64,000 nt of DNA from contig JACPUR010000035.1 of the NCBI GenBank assembly GCA_016192135.1, forward strand, positions 95,056 to 159,055. The letters run 5' to 3'. This document shows positions 3,337-63,643 of the stretch, piece after piece; position 1 is the first letter of the stretch; each line of letters opens with the position of its first letter. Source of the DNA: Candidatus Tectimicrobiota bacterium (GTDB lineage Bacteria; UBA8248). The position numbers and the translations under genes were made by a program. The notes beneath the pieces were generated by a model. That model had not been told where the DNA came from. It searched no databases and saw nothing but the letters and a program-made list of their open reading frames with translations.

Positions 3337-3432
3337 TCCCCTCACCCGGAGGGGAGGGCCAGGGTGGGGGAAGGATTTATAGCGCCGATAGATTCTCCCT
3401 CCCCCAGCCCCTTCCCGGAGGGAGGGGGAAAG
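3337..3432. repeat. GC-rich palindromic intergenic repeat, family 1 (CCCTCACCC...GGGAGGG type)
   Basis: CCCCTCACCCGGAGGGGAGGG ... CTCCCTCCCCCAGCCCCTTCCCGGAGGGAGGGGG. Same architecture as the copies at 45866, 49171, 54396, 56456 and 63529. Confidence 0.5.
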
Positions 3433-20669: not shown

Positions 20670-21002
20670 ATGCCTGTGTACAGCTGGAAGGACGTGCCGG
20701 AGAAGCAGCTCAACAACATCGTGCGGGGGCGCATCGTCCAGACCAAGAACGTCATGGCCTGCCGCATCACCGCCCCCCAGGGGGGGAAGGTCAAGACCCA
20801 CACCCACCCCTTCGACCAGATCACCCATCTGCTGCGCGGGAAGTTCCTCTGGCAGATCGAGGGGGAGGAGCCCCGCATCGTCCAGGCCGGGGACGTGCTG
20901 GTGCTCCCGGCCGGCACCCCGCACGGGGGCGAGGTGCTCGAGGAGGCGGAGTACATCGACATCTTCTCCCCGCCCAACCCGGATTTCGGTTGGGATAAGT
21001 AG
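20670..21002 (+). CDS. cupin domain protein
   Basis: AAAGGAG SD. (HTHPFDQITHLLRGK ... PAGTPHGGE) cupin motifs. Confidence 0.7.
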   Translation: MPVYSWKDVPEKQLNNIVRGRIVQTKNVMACRITAPQGGKVKTHTHPFDQITHLLRGKFLWQIEGEEPRIVQAGDVLVLPAGTPHGGEVLEEAEYIDIFSPPNPDFGWDK

Positions 21003-21787: not shown

Positions 21788-21845
21788 AATTCTTCTCCTT
21801 AAAATTGAACAGTGCGGATGTGACGGGGGGTCGCCTTTCATCCGC

Positions 21846-21873
21846 AGGGGCGGTTCGCGAACCGCCCCTGCGC
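21846..21873. repeat. REP family 2 unit (GCAGGGGCGGTTCGCGAACCGCCCCTGC)
   Basis: Perfect 28-nt palindrome. Same unit at 27311 and 29842. Confidence 0.5.
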
Positions 21874-27256: not shown

Positions 27257-27270
27257 GGGGGGAAAAATGT

Positions 27271-27340
27271 AGGGGCGACCGGCCGGTCGCCCCTACAGAC
27301 GTGAAGAGCCATTGATTTCCTGTAGGGGCGGTTCGTGAAC
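27271..27340. repeat. REP family 2 doublet (GTAGGGGCG...CGCCCCTAC x2)
   Basis: TAGGGGCGACCGGCCGGTCGCCCCTAC and GTAGGGGCGGTTCGTGAACCGCCCCTAC, between convergent genes. Confidence 0.55.
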
Positions 27341-27363
27341 CGCCCCTACTTCTTTCGCTTGCC

Positions 27364-28388: not shown

Positions 28389-29741
28389 TTAAGACTCCAA
28401 ATGAGAGAGATCCATCCCTTCGAGCGCGCTGCGGACGGCGGCGGCGAAGCGGCCCGCCGCCATGCCGTCGTTCGCCCGGTGGTCGAACGACAACGAGAGC
28501 GTCATCAGGGGAAGGAGGCCGATCCCTCCGCCGGGCAGGGCCGCCGCGCGCGGCGCGATCAGGCCCGTCCCGATGATGGCCGCCTCGGGCGGGTTGAGGA
28601 GGGGGATGCCCCCCCGGGCCCCCGAGGCGCCGAAGTTGGTGAGGGTGAGAGTGCCGCCCCCCATGTCGTCGGGGGTGAGCCCCCCCGAGCGGGCGCGGGC
28701 GCCCAGGCCGTCGACCGCCCGGACGAGGTCCACGAAGCCCATCCGGTCGATCTCCCGCAGGACGGGTACCACGAGCCCCTCGGGCGTGTCCACGGCGATC
28801 CCGAGGTTGACGTAGCGCGCCACGTGCAGCTCGTCCCCCTCGAAGCGGGCGTTCAGCCGCGCGTGGGCGGGGTCGCGCAGGGCGTGGACGATGGCCAGGG
28901 CGAGGAAGGGCGTGTAGCTGAGCGAGGCCCCGTGCCCCTCCCGGAAGCGCTCCTTGTGGGCCTCGCGCCAGGCGGCGATGCGGCTCATGTCCACGTCCAT
29001 CCACAGGCTCGCCTGGGGGATAGCCGCCGAGCGCGAGAGGTTCTCGGCGATGCGCCGGCGGAGGCGGGTCAGGGGCTCCCGCCGCTCACGGGGCTTCCCT
29101 TCCTCCGCCAGGGGGCGGAAGAGGAGCCTCACCGAGGGCGCGGCGGAGCCCCCCGCCTCGATGAAGCGCTCCACGTCCCGCGCCGTCACCCGGCCCCCCG
29201 CCCCCGTGCCGGGGAGGCCGAGGATCGTCCCCAGCGGGATGCCGTGCTCCGCCGCGAGGCGCTGCACGCGGGGGGAGAGCCATTTTCCTTGGCTATCGGG
29301 CGCCGCTTGCCGCGCTTGGGGAGCGGCGGGCCTCGACGGGGCGGGGGACACGGCGGGGGCTTGGCGCGGCGGGAGCGGGGCCACGGGGGCCACCCAGTCC
29401 CCCTCCGGCTGCTTGGGGGGGCCGGAGGCTTTCGGTGCGGCGCCTCCGGCCGGGGCCTTCGGCGCGGGGGAGGTCTCGGGAGGCGCGTCGGGGATCTCTT
29501 CTTCCGTTTCCAGCAGGGCGAGCACCTCGCCCACCGGGACGGTGGCGTCCGGAGCGACCAGGACCTCCTTCAGCACCCCGTCCGCCGGGCTCTCGACCTC
29601 GAACTCCACCTTATCGCTCTCGGCGGAGAGGAGAGGCTCTCCCTTCGCCACGCGATCTCCCGCCGCCTTCTTCCACTCGACCACGGTGCTCTCGTGAACG
29701 CTCGTGCCCATGCGCGGCATGCGGATGCGGGCGATGGGCAT
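28389..29741 (-). CDS. 2-oxoacid dehydrogenase E2 component (dihydrolipoamide acyltransferase)
   Basis: Lipoyl domain (SAESDKVEFEVESPADGVL), PSBD, catalytic domain (SFDHRANDG). ATG 29741 after AGGTGGAG. Confidence 0.8.
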   Translation of the reverse strand: MPIARIRMPRMGTSVHESTVVEWKKAAGDRVAKGEPLLSAESDKVEFEVESPADGVLKEVLVAPDATVPVGEVLALLETEEEIPDAPPETSPAPKAPAGGAAPKASGPPKQPEGDWVAPVAPLPPRQAPAVSPAPSRPAAPQARQAAPDSQGKWLSPRVQRLAAEHGIPLGTILGLPGTGAGGRVTARDVERFIEAGGSAAPSVRLLFRPLAEEGKPRERREPLTRLRRRIAENLSRSAAIPQASLWMDVDMSRIAAWREAHKERFREGHGASLSYTPFLALAIVHALRDPAHARLNARFEGDELHVARYVNLGIAVDTPEGLVVPVLREIDRMGFVDLVRAVDGLGARARSGGLTPDDMGGGTLTLTNFGASGARGGIPLLNPPEAAIIGTGLIAPRAAALPGGGIGLLPLMTLSLSFDHRANDGMAAGRFAAAVRSALEGMDLSHLES

Positions 29742-29841
29742 GGGGGGCTCCACCTTTTCGCAAATCGGGCGATAGGGCCGAGGGAGACTGCCTCCGGCGC
29801 GCCGGGGCGCCTTACTCGCAGGGGTGCATCCGCCGATTTCC

Positions 29842-29870
29842 CGCAGGGGCGGTTCGCGAACCGCCCCTCC
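29842..29870. repeat. REP family 2 unit inside the E1beta-E2 intercistronic region
   Basis: GCAGGGGCGGTTCGCGAACCGCCCCTCC. Confidence 0.5.
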
Positions 29871-32085: not shown

Positions 32086-32239
32086 TCATATACCAGAAAA
32101 AAGAAGATGGCGGGAAGGAAGGCCAATACCGGAGCGTCCTACCCAGGCTTTTCTCCCCGGCCCGTCTAGGGTAGAGTCGCCCCCGGACGCCCGCACGTGA
32201 ATTGCGCACCCCCCCCTCGGGGGCCATCGGGAAGGAACG

Positions 32240-43683: not shown

Positions 43684-44402
43684 TGGCGGAAGCCCTGCTG
43701 GAAGTCCAAGGCGTGGTCAAGCGCTTCGGGGGCTTCACCGCCCTGAACGGCGTCTCCTTCGAGGTGAGGGAGGGCGAGCGCTTCGGCCTCATCGGGCCGA
43801 ACGGATCGGGCAAGACCACCCTCATCAACTGCATCTCGGGGGCGCTCCGCAACGACGACGGGCGGATCCTCTTCCGCGGGATCGACATCACCAGGACACC
43901 CGCGTACCGGCGGACCCGGCTGGGGATCGCGCGGAGCTTCCAGATCCCCCGGCCATTCTCCAGCATGACGGTGGCGGAGAACCTCTGCATCCCGCTCGAG
44001 TACGCCGCCGGCGTCCGCGACGCGGACGCTCCCGGCGAGGCGCGGGAGATCCTCCGGCGCATCGGGCTCGAATCCAAGGCGGACGCGCCGACCGGCGGCC
44101 TCACCCAGATCGAGCTGCGCAAGCTCGAGCTCGCCCGCGCCATGGCGGCCCGGCCCAGCCTCCTCATCTCGGACGAGGCCATGGCGGGGCTCTCCAGCGC
44201 CGAGGTGGACGAGATCCTCGCCCTCCTCGGCCGCCTCAACGCCCAGGGAATCACCGTCATCATGATCGAGCACATCATGCGGGCGGTCATGAGCTTCTCC
44301 GAGCGAATCGTGGTGCTCGACGCGGGGGACAAGATAGCGGAGGGCACGCCCGGGGAGATCGTGAACAACAAGGACGTGGAGAAGGCCTACCTTGGCGAAT
44401 AG
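43683..44402 (+). CDS. livG: branched-chain amino acid ABC ATP-binding protein LivG
   Basis: (GPNGSGKTT) Walker A. ABC signature. H-loop. Confidence 0.85.
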   Translation: MAEALLEVQGVVKRFGGFTALNGVSFEVREGERFGLIGPNGSGKTTLINCISGALRNDDGRILFRGIDITRTPAYRRTRLGIARSFQIPRPFSSMTVAENLCIPLEYAAGVRDADAPGEAREILRRIGLESKADAPTGGLTQIELRKLELARAMAARPSLLISDEAMAGLSSAEVDEILALLGRLNAQGITVIMIEHIMRAVMSFSERIVVLDAGDKIAEGTPGEIVNNKDVEKAYLGE

Positions 44403-45123
44403 GCTGGTCCTCAAGGACGTGCGGGCGGGCTACGGGTCCGTCCAGGTCCTCCACGGCGTCTCGGTGGAGGTCGCCGAGGGCGAGACGGTCGTGCTCCTCG
44501 GCACGAACGGCAACGGGAAGAGCACCCTCATTAAGTGCATCATGGGCATGGTGCGGCCGGATGCCGGGGAGATCTACCTCGAGCGCGACGGCCGGCGCAT
44601 CGACCTCATCGGGAAAGCGCCGGAGGAGGTGGTGAACCTCGGCATCACCCTCGTCCCCGAGGGGAGGCGGCTCTTCCCCAAGCTCACGGTCGAGGAGAAC
44701 CTCCTCCTCGGCGCCTACCGCGCCGAGGCGCGGCGCGAGATCGGCGGCAACCTCGCCTTCTGCTACGAGGCCTTCCCCATCCTGGAGCAGCGCAAGCGCC
44801 AGCTCGCCGGGAGCATGAGCGGGGGCGAGCAGCAGATGCTCGCCGTGGCCCGGGCCCTCATGTCGGCCCCGCGCATCCTCCTGGTGGACGAGCCCTCCGT
44901 GGGCCTCGCCCCCATCTTAGTCAGCCGCGTGATCGCCAAGATCAAGGAGCTCAAGGAGCGCTACCACCTCACCGTCCTGATGGCCGAGCAGAACTTCAAC
45001 CAGGCCGTCAAGATCGCCGACCGTGGCTACATCATCGTCCACGGCCAGATCGAGTTCGAGGGCAAGGACGCGGGCGAGCTCTCCGGCCACGAGCTCGTCA
45101 AGAAGTTCTACCTCGGGTTGTAG
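44392..45123 (+). CDS. livF: branched-chain amino acid ABC ATP-binding protein LivF
   Basis: TTG start. (GTNGNGKST) Walker A. (MSGGEQQMLAVARAL). Confidence 0.85.
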   Translation: MANRLVLKDVRAGYGSVQVLHGVSVEVAEGETVVLLGTNGNGKSTLIKCIMGMVRPDAGEIYLERDGRRIDLIGKAPEEVVNLGITLVPEGRRLFPKLTVEENLLLGAYRAEARREIGGNLAFCYEAFPILEQRKRQLAGSMSGGEQQMLAVARALMSAPRILLVDEPSVGLAPILVSRVIAKIKELKERYHLTVLMAEQNFNQAVKIADRGYIIVHGQIEFEGKDAGELSGHELVKKFYLGL

Positions 45124-45329
45124 GGCCTCCCGCGCGAACCCGTCATCACCGTTTTTTATCGTTGAATCGCGTTGAACCGTCCCCTCGCGCGCGCCCCGAA
45201 AAATGGGGAAGTATCCGGTATTATCCGCGACTGTCCGGCACGCCCCCGCCCCGCCGCGCGCCCCCTCGCTTCGTAAAAAAAAGGCGTAATTCCCCATAAT
45301 TTCCCGGAACGGGCCGGAAGGCCCCTCTC

Positions 45330-45960
45330 TCCCACGGCCGGCCTCCTTGTCCCCCCCCTTTGGAACACCCCCCCTTGCCAAGGGGGGCAGGGGGGGTAGC
45401 AGGAGGGGGAGGTAAAGGGGGGCGAGCGGTTTACAGCCCCCGCCCCGGGGCGCCTTCCCCCTGCCCAATCCCGAATCTAGGCTCCACCGGGAGAAAGCCC
45501 GTTACCGCAAATCGCGCCAATTTCGCGCACCTTCATGCATGGGGGGTTTTTCGATACCCCCCATCGCGCCTTTGCCGGGTCCAGGCGGACCCGGCCCTTC
45601 CCCCAAGGGGGGCGGCGCATCCTCCGCCCCCTGTTTTCCCGGGTCCCCAAACCGGCCTGCCGGTTTGGGAGGAGGGGGGGAGGTATTGGGGGGGTGGTGC
45701 TGGGTGAAAAGGGATGCGCCCGGCCCCCGAATGACGGATAATGGAGTGCACAAAAGCTCAAAAAAATGCTCATTTTTTGCGTGAATTTGGGGGAAAACGG
45801 CGCGTTTTTTCCAAATTCGGCCCCGTTTTTGTGCCAGCGAGGCAGGGCATGGGCGCCCTACGTTTTTCCCTCTCCCTCCGGGAGAGGGTAGGGTGAGGGC
45901 GCGGACGGGGGCATTCCCTCACCCCGGCCCTCTCCCAAGGGGAGAGGGGGAAGGACCAAC
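45330..45960. repeat. non-coding region dense in hairpins, homopolymer C/G tracts and REP-family-1 units
   Basis: C8 and C7 runs at 45351-45374. G-run clusters at 45382-45422 and 45666-45704. Perfect hairpins (ATGGGGGG..CCCCCCAT, CCAAACCGG-CCTG-CCGGTTTGG). Family-1 unit at 45866-45952. No credible ORF. Confidence 0.45.
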
Positions 45961-46017
45961 GGACGGATTCAACCGCGCATTCCGCGTGAAGTGCCGCCCT
46001 TTCCCGGAGGCCCCGCC

Positions 46018-47397
46018 ATGCCCGACGACCGCCCCTATCCCGCCACGGCCGAGCTCGCCCGCCGCATCGCCCAGGCAAGGGTGGAGGACGTGGACCCCCC
46101 CGCCCGGGCCAAGGCCCGCGAGGCCGTCGTGGACACCCTGGGCGTCGCCCTGGCCGGCTCGCGGGAGGAGTGCGCCCGCCTCGCCCGGGAGCTCGCCGCG
46201 CGCGAGGGGGGCGCCCCCAAGGCCGCGCTGTGGGGCGGGGGAGGCCGCACCAGCCTCACCTGGGCCGCCTTCGCGAACGGCACCGCCGGCCACGCCCTCG
46301 ACTTCGACGACACCGACTTCATCCTGCTCGGCCACCCGAGCGTGGTGCTCGCCCCCGCCCTCATCGCCCTGGCCGGGGAGCGCGGGAGGGACGGCGCCCA
46401 TCTCCTCGCCGCCTACGCCGTGGGCTTCGAGACCCTGCGCGCCCTGGGCCGGGCCCTCAACCCCCGGCACTACCGCCGGGGCTTCCACGCCACCGCCACC
46501 CTCGGGACGGTCGGGGCCGCCGCGGCCTGCGCCCACCTCCTGCGCCTCGGCGAGGAGCGGACGCGCCACGCCCTCTCCCTCGCCGCGAGCCAGGCCGCGG
46601 GCCTCGGGTGCAACTTCGGCACCATGACCAAGCCCTTCCACGCCGGCCAGGCCTCCCGCGCCGGGCTCTTGGCCGCCCTCCTGGCCGAGGCGGGCTTCAC
46701 CTCGGGCCCCGACGCCCTCGAGACCGGCTTCACCGCCGCCCTGGCCGCCGAGGGCATCGGGCCCGGCGTCGAGCGCTTCGCGGACTGGGAGGGCGCGCTG
46801 CGTTCCTGGGGCCCCCCCTGGGACATCGAGGGCGGCGTCAGCGTCAAGCTCCACCCCTGCTGCGCCATGACCCACACCGCCATCGACGCCATGCTCGCCC
46901 TGCGCGAGACCGAGGGCATCCGCCCCGGGGAGGTCGAGAGCCTGGGCGCCAAGTCCTCCGCCATGGCCCAGAAGATCCTGCGCTACTCCACGGCCTCGAA
47001 CGGCCTCGAGGGCAAGTTCTCCATGCAGTTCTGCCTCGCCTCCGCCCTGGCCGACGGCCGGGTCGGCCTCCCCCAGTTCGAGGACCAAGGCGTCCAAAGG
47101 CCCCTCGTCCAGGACCTCCAGCGGCGCGCGAGCTTCGGCCTCGACCCCGCCCTCGACCCCGAGAGCCACCGCGCCGAGGTCTGGGTGCGCCTCAAGGACG
47201 GCCGCGAGGCCCGCCGCGCCGAGACCCTCCCCCGGGGCCACGCCGAGCGCCCCGTCCCCGAGGGCGAGCTCCGCGCCAAATTCCTCGAATGCGCCGCCCT
47301 CGCCCTCCCGCCCCAAAAGGCCCAGGCCGCCTGGGACGCCTGGTGGGAGGTCGAGGGGGCGGGGGACGTGGGGAAGCTCGCGGAGATGCTGGGGTAG
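46018..47397 (+). CDS. MmgE/PrpD family protein (2-methylcitrate dehydratase family)
   Basis: ATG 46018 after GGAGG. PrpD-family N- and C-domains. Confidence 0.8.
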   Translation: MPDDRPYPATAELARRIAQARVEDVDPPARAKAREAVVDTLGVALAGSREECARLARELAAREGGAPKAALWGGGGRTSLTWAAFANGTAGHALDFDDTDFILLGHPSVVLAPALIALAGERGRDGAHLLAAYAVGFETLRALGRALNPRHYRRGFHATATLGTVGAAAACAHLLRLGEERTRHALSLAASQAAGLGCNFGTMTKPFHAGQASRAGLLAALLAEAGFTSGPDALETGFTAALAAEGIGPGVERFADWEGALRSWGPPWDIEGGVSVKLHPCCAMTHTAIDAMLALRETEGIRPGEVESLGAKSSAMAQKILRYSTASNGLEGKFSMQFCLASALADGRVGLPQFEDQGVQRPLVQDLQRRASFGLDPALDPESHRAEVWVRLKDGREARRAETLPRGHAERPVPEGELRAKFLECAALALPPQKAQAAWDAWWEVEGAGDVGKLAEMLG

Positions 47398-47407
47398 GGG
47401 CAGGGGG

Positions 47408-47998
47408 ATGCCATTCAACCCCGACGCCCGCCGCCGCCGGTCGGTGCGGTTGAAGGGATGGGATTACGCCTCGCGCGGGGCGTATTTCATCACGATATGC
47501 GTGCAAGGCCGCGAATGCCGTCTGGGGGAGATCGCGGGCGGGAAGATGCGATTGAGCGAAGCCGGCGCGATGGTCCACCGGACATGGGAGGAATTGCCCC
47601 TCCGGTTTCCGAACGTGGGATTGGATGCGTTCGTGGTGATGCCGAATCACCTTCATGGGATATTGGTTTTGAAAGTCCGTAGGGGCGAATCTCGTATTCG
47701 CCCCCTGGAAGCGGGCGGGTCTTCGCCTTTGCATGAGGGCGAACACAAGGTTCGCCCCTACGGAACGTTGCCGTGGACAATTGGCCGTATCGTGCAGGCG
47801 TTCAAGTCCACGGTGACGCGGCGCTACGCCGCTGACGTGAAAGAACAAGGCTGGCCGCCCTTCTCCGGCAGGTTCTGGCAGCGCAATTTCTACGAGCACA
47901 TCCTCCGGGACGAGGCGGAATGGGACCGCGCGCGGGAATACGTCCTGCACAATCCCCTGGAATGGGCGGAGGACGAGAACCACCCGCAAAATGTGTAG
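47408..47998 (+). mobile_element. REP-associated tyrosine transposase (RAYT, IS200/IS605 Y1 family) carrying an internal REP doublet
   Basis: (YFITICVQGREC), HUH motif (NHLHGIL), catalytic Tyr (WQRNFYEHILRDE). An extra approx 30 aa between HUH and the following helix is encoded by two REP-2 hairpins. Confidence 0.8.
47679..47769. repeat. REP family 2 doublet inside the RAYT ORF
   Basis: GTAGGGGCGAATCTCGTATTCGCCCC ... GGGCGAACACAAGGTTCGCCCCTAC in inverted orientation, in-frame, no stop codon. Confidence 0.55.
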
Positions 47999-48010
47999 AA
48001 TGGTTCGCGG

Positions 48011-48056
48011 GGGGATAGAATCCCCCCGCCGGGGGATGCTCCCCGTTTTTTCTTCG
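48011..48056 (+). terminator. hairpin(s) plus T-tract downstream of RAYT (possible terminator)
   Basis: CGGGGGGAT-AGA-ATCCCCCCG, then GGGGA-TGC-TCCCC followed by GTTTTTTCTTC. Confidence 0.35.
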
Positions 48057-49170: not shown

Positions 49171-49258
49171 TTCCCTCCCCCTCCGGGGGAGGGTAGGGTG
49201 AGGGGAAAATCCACGGAGGTGCTTCCCTCACCCCAGCCCTCTCCCATAGGGAGAGGGA
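49171..49258. repeat. REP/MITE family 1 unit
   Basis: CCCTCCCCCTCCGGGGGAGGGTAGGGTGAGGGG ... CCCTCACCCCAGCCCTCTCCCATAGGGAGAGGGAG. Confidence 0.5.
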
Positions 49259-54395: not shown

Positions 54396-54552
54396 TTTCC
54401 CTCACCCCCATCCCCTCTCCGCCCTCTCGAACCGGCAGGCCGGTTCGGGGACCCGAAAAGACGGGGAGAGGGGCGCCGATGCCGCAAAAGCCGATGCCCC
54501 GGATGAAGGGGCCGCTTCTCCCTCTCCCTCCGGGAGAGGGCCGGGGTGAGGG
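54396..54552. repeat. REP/MITE family 1 composite
   Basis: CCCTCACCCCCATCCCCTCTCC ... CGAACCGGCAGGCCGGTTCG ... CCCTCTCCCTCCGGGAGAGGGCCGGGGTGAGGGAG. Confidence 0.5.
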
Positions 54553-55039: not shown

Positions 55040-56376
<1,337 letters not shown>

Positions 56377-56455: not shown

Positions 56456-56552
56456 TCCCTCCCCCTCCGAGGGAGGGTAGGGAGGGGGGAAAAGGCTCGC
56501 GGCGGCTTTCATTCTCCCTCCCCCCTGCCCCCCTCTCGGAGGGAGGGGGGAA
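56456..56552. repeat. REP/MITE family 1 unit
   Basis: CCCTCCCCCTCCGAGGGAGGGTAGGGAGGGGGG ... CTCCCTCCCCCCTGCCCCCCTCTCGGAGGGAGGGGGG. Confidence 0.5.
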
Positions 56553-62144: not shown

Positions 62145-62174
62145 GCTTCATCCCCCCCTTTCCCGGGGGGAGCC

Positions 62175-63528: not shown

Positions 63529-63643
63529 TCCCCTCACCCCGGCCCTCTCCCAGAGGGAGAGGGAGGAATGACCATTTCATACGCCGACAGCTTTGGCGGC
63601 CCCGGCGCCCCTCTCCCCTTGGGAGAGGGGAGGGGGTGAGGGA
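63529..63643. repeat. REP/MITE family 1 composite
   Basis: CCCCTCACCCCGGCCCTCTCCCAGAGGGAGAGGGAGG ... CCCCTCTCCCCTTGGGAGAGGGGAGGGGGTGAGGG. Confidence 0.5.

Follow-up and report, generated by a model that had tools for sequence, protein, structure and literature searches.

Small G/C-rich structured repeats as the likely source of the G- and C-runs in an intergenic spacer of a Candidatus Tectomicrobia genome

Why does a single non-coding spacer accumulate homopolymeric C and G tracts, clusters of G-runs and perfect hairpins within less than one kilobase? The spacer in question, here called the island, separates a livF-type gene from an MmgE/PrpD family gene on contig JACPUR010000035.1 of a Candidatus Tectomicrobia metagenome-assembled genome (MAG; assembly GCA_016192135.1). 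It is considered within a stretch of 64,000 nt of this contig (positions 95,056 to 159,055; hereafter the window, 68.8% GC), whose own numbering is used throughout. A first-pass annotation made from the letters alone had offered three readings of the island, namely a pile-up of nested structured repeats, a contingency locus subject to slipped-strand changes, or a long structured RNA or leader, and had called its two G-run clusters strong G-quadruplex (G4) candidates. We consider it likely that the island is a non-coding intergenic spacer, about twice as long as that of its relatives, which has been enlarged by collecting small G/C-rich structured repeats. Judged by sequence and predicted pairing, the C8 and C7 runs and both G-run clusters are shown to be arms of BoxC-type units and hairpins, and not free-standing G4 motifs. 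Since the island is packed with small palindromic repeats, its G-runs are to be read as repeat arms and not as a special switch or an RNA gene.

The non-coding nature of the island is clear from its composition. The region 45091–46111 forms the longest stretch of the window without periodicity of third-position GC (GC3), and none of the seven translated open reading frames (ORFs) of the island matches Pfam, in line with the earlier statement that no credible ORF is present. Ten G/C runs of at least 6 nt are found in its 894 nt, where about 1.5 would be expected from the remaining window (Poisson P = 4e-6), and homopolymer tracts of 6–8 nt are about 6.7 times as dense as elsewhere in the window. 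The C8 run (45351–45358) and the C7 run (45368–45374) are located where the first-pass annotation had placed them. The window as a whole contains 116 G/C runs of at least 6 nt per 64 kb and 38 canonical G4 motifs. In addition, simple hairpins formed by C5-8/G5-8 runs are present in other intergenic gaps (48009–48035, 62152–62170, 32209–32223, 28601–28686, 20773–20786 and 55529–55542). The recurrence of C/G-run hairpins in these short gaps therefore points to a genome-wide habit and not to a peculiarity of the island.

The element that can be named most directly is the repeat labelled family 1 in the first-pass annotation, which is located at 45862–45956 and which, by its match to Escherichia coli, is an inverted pair of BoxC/PIT/TM_ECO motifs. 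The TM_ECO pattern (earlier called BoxC or PIT element) reads 5'-CCCTCNCCC N3-6 GGGNGAGGG N3 GGGNGAGGG-3' (Holder et al. 2015, PMC4666352), and each unit of the BoxC type found here reads CCCTCTCCC-N3-GGGAGAGGG-N2-3-GGGTGAGGG. The minus-strand unit (45916–45948), CCCTCTCCC-CTT-GGGAGAGGG-CCG-GGGTGAGGG, is of type B and matches the published pattern exactly, and the plus-strand unit (45868–45899), CCCTCTCCC-TCC-GGGAGAGGG-TA-GGGTGAGGG, is type-A-like and matches it except for a linker of 2 nt in place of 3. When the pair is used as a blastn query, matches are found in 5094 of 5426 E. coli genomes (81% identity over 92% of the query; median of 7 places per genome), and the 95 nt align collinearly with the pair between E. 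coli phnE and phnD. The pair is predicted to fold as a single long hairpin (-69.8 kcal/mol, z = -6.0 against shuffles). Other copies of the family are located at ~3339–3431, 49173–49257, 54396–54552, 56457–56546 and 63531–63642, and all six BoxC-type loci in the 64 kb fall in non-periodic stretches, taken as intergenic. In two copies a TA-linker unit is paired with a unit carrying a three-base linker, which is CCG in the island and CTG at 49173–49257; GTAG is present in the TA-linker unit only (GAGGGTAGGGTG), the CCG units being without it.

The agreement with the known element therefore includes the three-arm sequence CCCTCTCCC-loop-GGGAGAGGG-linker-GGGTGAGGG with its 9-nt stems and 3-nt loops, the intergenic site, and the combination of a TTA/TA-linker unit (type A) with a CCG-linker unit (type B) in inverted pairs. 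The differences concern the host, a Candidatus Tectomicrobia MAG here against the 262 proteobacterial genomes from which the motif was catalogued (PMC4666352), and the linker of one island unit, which has 2 nt (TA) and not 3. Moreover, two variants present in the island and described below, one with poly-G arms and one with a hairpin inside its first loop, were found neither in the text of PMC4666352 nor in the supplements searched. According to the same source, which cites earlier work by Bachellier and by Hoyne and Maher on TM_ECO, BoxC/TM_ECO elements are always intergenic, PIT/BoxC showed no promoter or terminator activity in E. coli, and the sites are associated with local genomic instability. 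As a single strand the element forms a triplex in vitro, none having been detected in duplex DNA or in vivo, and no transposase link is known for BoxC-type units (PMC4666352). No transposase linked to BoxC-type units was found in the present analysis either.

This three-arm architecture can be recognized by rule. A scanner for class II intrastrand triplexes was used, in which a pyrimidine arm has to be followed, after a loop, by its complementary purine arm and, after a linker, by a mirror-image third arm that satisfies the triad rules G·G-C, A·A-T and T·A-T. It finds 11 matches in the window, 40 dinucleotide-preserving shuffles giving 0.125 on average, and with stems of at least 8 nt it finds 10 in the window and none in the shuffles. 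Three of the 11 matches are inside the island, namely the two BoxC units and a third at 45369–45397. Folding throughout is by ViennaRNA, which does not model triplexes, and triplex potential is judged in silico by the triad rules alone.

The third match overlaps G-cluster 1, which has the run structure given in the first-pass annotation, composed of G6 (45382–45387), CA, G7 (45390–45396), N8, G5 (45405–45409), N7 and G6 (45417–45422). The arms of the match, CCCCCCTT / AAGGGGGG / GGGGGGGT, correspond to the C7 run and the first two G-runs of the cluster. The core (45368–45397) is a copy of a mini-repeat of the form C7-TT-N3-AA-G7-N2-3-G7-T, a poly-G analogue of BoxC. Together with the C8 run and the neighbouring sequences CCTCCTTGT / TAGCAGGAGG, this core forms a nested palindrome, which folds with -61.1 kcal/mol (z = -3.4) and in which all G-runs are predicted to pair with C-runs. 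The only other copy of the core among the first 82 loci is located in the livF-prpD spacer of the relative L001, at 1347–1377 (CCCCCTTGGTTAAGGGGGGGCGCAGGGGGGGT).

Metagenome sequences show that the poly-G unit is widespread. They were scanned with the pattern CCCCCTTG-N1-4-AAGGGGGG-N1-4-AGGGGGGGT, which imposes the third arm, so that the frequency of this arm is biased. The core was found in metagenomes of soil, peat, sediment and groundwater, on at least 120 contigs with a GC content of 0.35–0.70, and the hosts include the present Tectomicrobia MAG and at least one Bacteroidota-type contig. Run lengths vary little among the 119 copies listed, with C7 in 93, G7 as the first G-run in 102 and G7 as the second in 110. 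The loop has 3 nt, the arms have 7+2 nt, and the commonest linkers are TA, TTA, CCA and CA. By its arm and loop lengths and its TA/TTA linkers, the poly-G unit matches the geometry of BoxC. Many copies carry an additional upstream C7, which makes them fully palindromic as in the island, and some form inverted pairs or tandem arrays. Because the length of 7 recurs in unrelated organisms, the 7-nt tracts of the island are to be taken as a family trait and not as a local expansion. None of 20 loci carrying the element matches Rfam, a single match in viral contigs gives no link to phages, and a literature search returned nothing specific to the unit. Tentatively, the poly-G unit may be an undescribed, cosmopolitan mini-repeat of BoxC geometry, spreading across phyla with no transposase or phage link and inserting in frame, in low-GC hosts, into essential genes such as ligA, proS and purL. 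The Tectomicrobia spacer would then be a landing pad and BoxC the best-known member of a wider class. This broader picture is possible, and we hold it with more doubt than confidence.

In low-GC metagenome contigs, the poly-G unit is located in frame within genuine genes (L159 6699–6930; L109 1233–1430; also L103, L104, L124, L150, L151 and L092). The products include NAD-dependent DNA ligase, prolyl-tRNA synthetase, PurL, a P-type ATPase, a sigma-54 activator, TPR-CHAT and WD40 proteins, and an endonuclease I with a type IX secretion system (T9SS) sorting domain. Particularly, the 8 residues that E. coli LigA has directly before the KxDG motif correspond to 57 in LigA of L159, and these 57 form repeated peptides of the type APPLTPPNQGGEQDGI.

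G-cluster 2, earlier placed at 45666–45704 and found at 45667–45704, belongs to a composite repeat that is, judging by its alignment, a degenerate unit of the BoxC type whose loop holds another dispersed hairpin. The composite (~100 nt) aligns end to end with 54480–54385 on the minus strand. This second copy is a BoxC-type unit with the arms CCCCTCTCCCCG, CGGAGAGGGG and GGGGGTGAGGG, whose first loop carries the hairpin GGGTCCCC(A/G)AACCGGCCTGCCGGTT(T/C)G. The two copies are distinguished by compensatory A/T to G/C changes in the nested stem, and one hairpin family is thus found nested in the loop of another in two separate copies. In the island, the nested hairpin (family 2) is CCCAAACCGGC-CT-GCCGGTTTGGG at 45646–45669. 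It contains CCAAACCGG-CCTG-CCGGTTTGG (45647–45668), one of the two perfect hairpins that had been pointed out before; the other, ATGGGGGGTTTTTCGATACCCCCCAT at 45539–45564, is also present. A third copy of the family-2 hairpin, inverted, is located just past livF in the relative L001 (1105–1141). The arms of the island composite have drifted towards G7AGG and G7TGG, with the two G7 runs at 45674–80 and 45688–94, and Tandem Repeats Finder (TRF) reports a 14-nt unit repeated 2.2 times at 45674–45704. Taken alone, the composite does not fold significantly (z = -1.15). The pile-up of nested structured repeats that had been suggested is supported by these observations, as the three most conspicuous elements of the island are copies of dispersed families, and a hairpin nested in a loop is found twice.

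Comparison with relatives places these repeats in a rapidly changing site. The MmgE/PrpD protein is 100% identical to one annotated from a Candidatus Tectomicrobia MAG, and its next closest relatives are 75–77% identical (Tectomicrobia or Nitrospinota MAGs L001, L002, L012, L081 and L082), with no genome between 77% and 100% in the databases searched. Four relatives, L012, L081, L001 and L082, have livF and prpD in the same order, separated by gene-free spacers of 490, 490, 515 and 402 nt, respectively, against 894 nt in the window; L081 is near-identical to L012, which leaves three independent relatives. These spacers have blocks in common among themselves and almost none with the window. An alignment with MAFFT anchors only TGA(C/G)GGATAATG (window 45732–45744) and the ribosome-binding site with the start codon (GGAGGCCC..CCATG), and shuffle-controlled local alignment to the spacers of the relatives gives no significance outside the repeat units and the region of the ribosome-binding site. 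In L012, L081 and L082 the spacer holds other repeats, GTAGGGGCG REP pairs. Its occupation by different repeats in the relatives indicates a fast-evolving site where mini-repeats come and go, and this turnover agrees with the instability linked to TM_ECO sites by Holder et al. The repeats would appear to arrive and decay quickly, since almost no sequence can be aligned with relatives whose PrpD is 75–77% identical.

Several observations weigh against an island enlarged by repeats. The identified palindromic elements cover only ~40% of the 894 nt, and the first 215 nt, the segment 45426–45536 and the AT-rich patch match nothing in the data searched. The patch is present as annotated (45735–45835, 44.6% GC against 68.8% in the window). 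Its main part (45745–45835) folds like shuffles (z = -0.9 on the plus and -0.08 on the minus strand), has no other copy in the window or the loci searched, and is absent from the relatives. The hairpins at 45539–45564 and 45574–45595, which fold together with -40.8 kcal/mol (z = -5.2), are singletons without another copy in the data searched; a G6-loop-C6 hairpin resembling the first is located at 48009–48027. All relatives keep a long spacer of 400–515 nt, therefore some function (promoter/operator) probably resides there. The poly-G element in the same spacer of L001 could reflect retention by selection and not independent insertion. A role of the spacer as a leader would also tell against the repeats as the whole account, and such a role has a low probability in our estimate.

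The G-runs invite the reading that both clusters fold as G4, in DNA or in the 5' region of a transcript, and control the MmgE/PrpD gene, which we regard as unlikely. Both clusters are located on the sense strand upstream of this gene, and the G4Hunter check proposed earlier gives them scores of 2.52 and 2.56, which makes them two of only four segments at or above 2.5 in the 64 kb. Cluster 2 (45667–45713) fits (G3+N1-7)x4, cluster 1 (45382–45422) fits when loops of up to 12 nt are allowed, and similar repeats can adopt G4 in place of hairpin or triplex once they have been melted in potassium (PMC8044849). However, complementary C tracts adjoin both clusters (45342–45374 for cluster 1 and 45621–45631 for cluster 2), and the predicted hairpin of cluster 1, at -61 kcal/mol, pairs all its G-runs. 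The clusters are 300–640 nt away from the start codon, canonical G4 motifs number 38 in the window alone, and among the relatives only L001 has a similar element in the spacer. Moreover, the units occur in many unrelated contexts, including coding regions, and are therefore not tied to the MmgE/PrpD gene. The label of strong G4 candidates thus holds with respect to motif and G4Hunter score, but it is not the best description, as the G-runs form purine and third arms beside C tracts.

This arrangement has a parallel in recurrent G4-type repeats of Methanomicrobiaceae, E. coli and Deinococcus radiodurans, in which an adjacent complementary C tract allows hairpin, triplex and G4 forms to interconvert in vitro (PMC8044849). 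As in the island, these repeats are interspersed, intergenic and G-rich, with a flanking complementary C tract through which hairpin, triplex and G4 compete, and in the bacterial repeats the C tract is located 5' of the G-runs as it is here. Interspersed GnN1-2Gn repeats, which are mentioned in the same paper for three archaea and left unanalysed, resemble the G6-CA-G7 of cluster 1. The known repeats differ from the island in sequence and host, and the archaeal units have their C tract on the 3' side.

It is likewise improbable that the island gives rise to a long structured non-coding RNA or serves the MmgE/PrpD gene as a riboswitch-like leader. The whole island folds better than shuffles (z = -3.8) directly upstream of a metabolic gene and on the same strand, and the GGATAAT box and the ribosome-binding site are common to the relatives. 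If transcription started at ~45750, the BoxC pair would be in the 5' untranslated region, 70 nt from the ATG. However, the minus strand folds equally well (z = -3.5), and z-scores so similar on both strands point to DNA palindromes and not to a strand-specific RNA. The putative leader itself reaches only z = -2.4, with the signal coming from the BoxC hairpin, the AT-rich patch is unstructured, and the relatives have no sequence or structure in common with the island outside repeat units. The lack of promoter or terminator activity of PIT/BoxC in E. coli (PMC4666352) also speaks against a leader. The Rfam scan that had been proposed finds no family at gathering threshold (Rfam 15) in the 64-kb window. 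A relaxed scan gives only sub-threshold hairpin matches on both strands, mostly to eukaryotic miRNA models (best 28 bits against thresholds of 37–107), which were rejected as generic long-hairpin matches, and neither a tRNA nor a tmRNA was found in the island. The suggestion of an RNA or leader is not sustained by these results.

It is very unlikely that the island is a contingency locus, where slippage of the C8, C7, G6 or G7 tracts would turn a nearby gene on and off. The ten homopolymer tracts of 6–8 nt would suit such a locus, and poly-G copies elsewhere vary by one or two bases in tract length, which indicates that slippage happens over evolutionary time. None of the tracts, however, is located in a credible ORF or between recognizable -35 and -10 boxes, and they are C/G arms that pair with each other within palindromes. 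A tract length of 7 is conserved in unrelated organisms (C7 in 93 and G7 in 102 of the 119 copies listed) and belongs to the family. Tracts of 6–8 nt are also short relative to typical phase-variable tracts. The contingency reading is thus left without support, though not refuted.

That a gene once present between livF and prpD has decayed here is the least probable reading, to which we give almost no weight: the spacer is unusually long and has several stop-free frames of 70–115 codons, but the absence of any Pfam match in any frame, the gene-free spacers between the same two genes in three independent relatives (where an intact protein, named earlier as the finding that would reveal a pseudogene, is not seen) and the lack of collinear translated similarity (six-frame tblastn against these spacers gives only low-complexity Gly/Pro/Arg-rich noise) are evidence against a decayed gene, as is the lack of residual codon periodicity.

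If the island is a spacer enlarged by repeats, the latter would largely be neutral or selfish passengers accumulating in a permissive site. Any effect would be generic, arising from a transient hairpin, triplex or G4 on DNA made single-stranded during replication or transcription, or on a transcript; replication pausing, local instability, and punctuation or stabilisation of mRNA are conceivable examples. A dedicated switch would not be expected. The locus should accordingly be annotated neither as a riboswitch nor as a contingency locus or pseudogene. The presence in Candidatus Tectomicrobia of BoxC/TM_ECO units 81% identical to E. coli copies extends the motif past the Proteobacteria in which it was catalogued, and raises the question of horizontal spread versus convergence on a structural optimum. 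Moreover, G4 and homopolymer surveys of GC-rich genomes will repeatedly flag the arms of such units. An adjacent complementary C tract and the recurrence of the whole unit separate these arms from free-standing G4 motifs. A dedicated study would be worthwhile for the poly-G analogue, together with its insertions in frame into housekeeping genes.

The island also shares features with REP/REPIN elements, which are mobilised by RAYT transposases (Bertels and Rainey 2011, PMC3116915). These elements are short intergenic palindromes, often arranged as inverted pairs folding to one long hairpin, and occur in many copies per genome with accumulation in permissive spacers, and a RAYT-like gene is located 1.4 kb downstream of the island (47408–47998). 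In contrast to the island repeats, however, the RAYT-linked GTAGGGGCG REPs (47679–47761 and 27269–27349) have no member in 45124–46017. The coordinates of the features of the island and its flanks are collected in Table 1.

Table 1. Features of the livF-prpD spacer and its flanking genes, in window coordinates.
Feature	Position	Strand	Remarks
LivF-type ABC transporter ATPase gene	44392–45123	+	Upstream flank; Pfam ABC_tran E = 4e-30
Non-coding spacer (island), 894 nt	45124–46017		Between livF-type gene and MmgE/PrpD gene
Nested G/C palindrome with C8, C7 and G-cluster 1	45339–45425	+	Core 45368–45397
G6/C6 hairpin ATGGGGGGTTTTTCGATACCCCCCAT = ATGGGGGG-TTTTTCGATA-CCCCCCAT	45539–45564		
Perfect 9-bp hairpin GCCGGGTCC-AGGC-GGACCCGGC	45574–45595		
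Composite repeat	45612–45712	+	C-rich arm 45621–45631, nested family-2 hairpin, G-rich arms forming G-cluster 2 (45667–45704)
GACGGATAATGG box	45733–45744	+	Possibly what is left of a -10-like promoter or of an operator of the prpD-family gene; weak evidence
AT-rich patch with short inverted repeats	45745–45835		44% GC
Inverted pair of BoxC/PIT/TM_ECO intrastrand-triplex motifs	45862–45956		Plus-strand unit 45868–45899, minus-strand unit 45916–45948
Ribosome-binding site and ATG of MmgE/PrpD gene	46003–46020	+	GGAGG at 46006–46010; GGAGGCCC..CCATGCCCGA kept in all relatives
MmgE/PrpD family gene	46018–47397	+	Downstream flank; Pfam MmgE_PrpD_N 4e-57, MmgE_PrpD_C 2e-33

Pfam confirms the names given earlier to the flanking genes, an ABC ATPase of LivF type and a member of the MmgE/PrpD family with its ATG at 46018. 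The promoter of the MmgE/PrpD gene, like its ribosome-binding site, is probably located at the 3' end of the spacer. The gene may also be co-transcribed with the liv genes. A scan for the sigma-70 consensus finds no promoter in the island and three weak terminator-like sites against 1.9 expected, a result that carries little information, and no sigma-54 motif of the form TGGCAC-N5-TTGC is seen on manual inspection. The GACGGATAATGG box agrees with the collinear TGAGGGATAATG of four relatives in 12 of 13 positions, with a local-alignment z of only ~1. A conserved small ORF starting from the ATG of the GGATAATGG box was considered and rejected, as its peptides in the window and in the relatives are unrelated by eye. 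Pairing of 45875–45888 with the Shine-Dalgarno region at 45997–46010 (93% complementary) was also considered and dropped, as it is unused in the minimum free energy fold of the putative leader. In addition, the 19-nt sequence GCCGCCCTTTCCCGGAGGC is identical in the window (45993–46011) and in L001 (1150–1168), with a local-alignment z of 7.1. It overlaps the region of the ribosome-binding site of the MmgE/PrpD gene in the window, and is located in a small hairpin just downstream of livF in L001.

The relatives have two conserved non-coding blocks upstream of the prpD-family gene, which the window does not contain (L012 5160–5230 and 5380–5563; L001 1252–1320 and 1430–1613; L082 187–250 and 370–546; L002 2486–2560). 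Block A reads TCCCGGAAC..GAATTTGAGGTAAG..GGGATGTATCTTCC. Block B, of ~130 nt, contains the inverted repeat TCCACCGG-N14-CCGGTGGA and GGATAA(T/A)G boxes at intervals of ~10 nt, four of them in L002. Both blocks look like operator or promoter elements.

The RAYT-like ORF downstream of the island is on the plus strand, encodes 196 residues and starts 10 nt past the stop codon of the MmgE/PrpD gene. Its match to NCBIfam NF047646 (E = 4e-16, 59 bits) is below the cut-off of 80. Its best match in the PDB is E. coli TnpA-REP (4ER8), with which the HUH motif (NHLHG) and the tyrosine motif WQRNFYEH align. An inverted GTAGGGGCGAA REP pair is located in frame in the middle of the RAYT-like gene (47679–47761) and divides this match into two stretches. 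A second palindromic family, CTGTAGGGGCGGTTCG-CGAACCGCCCCT, a GTAG-type REP arranged in inverted pairs, which also occupies the livF-prpD spacer of L012, L081 and L082, is located in the window at 27269–27349, 21836–21869 and 29835–29868.

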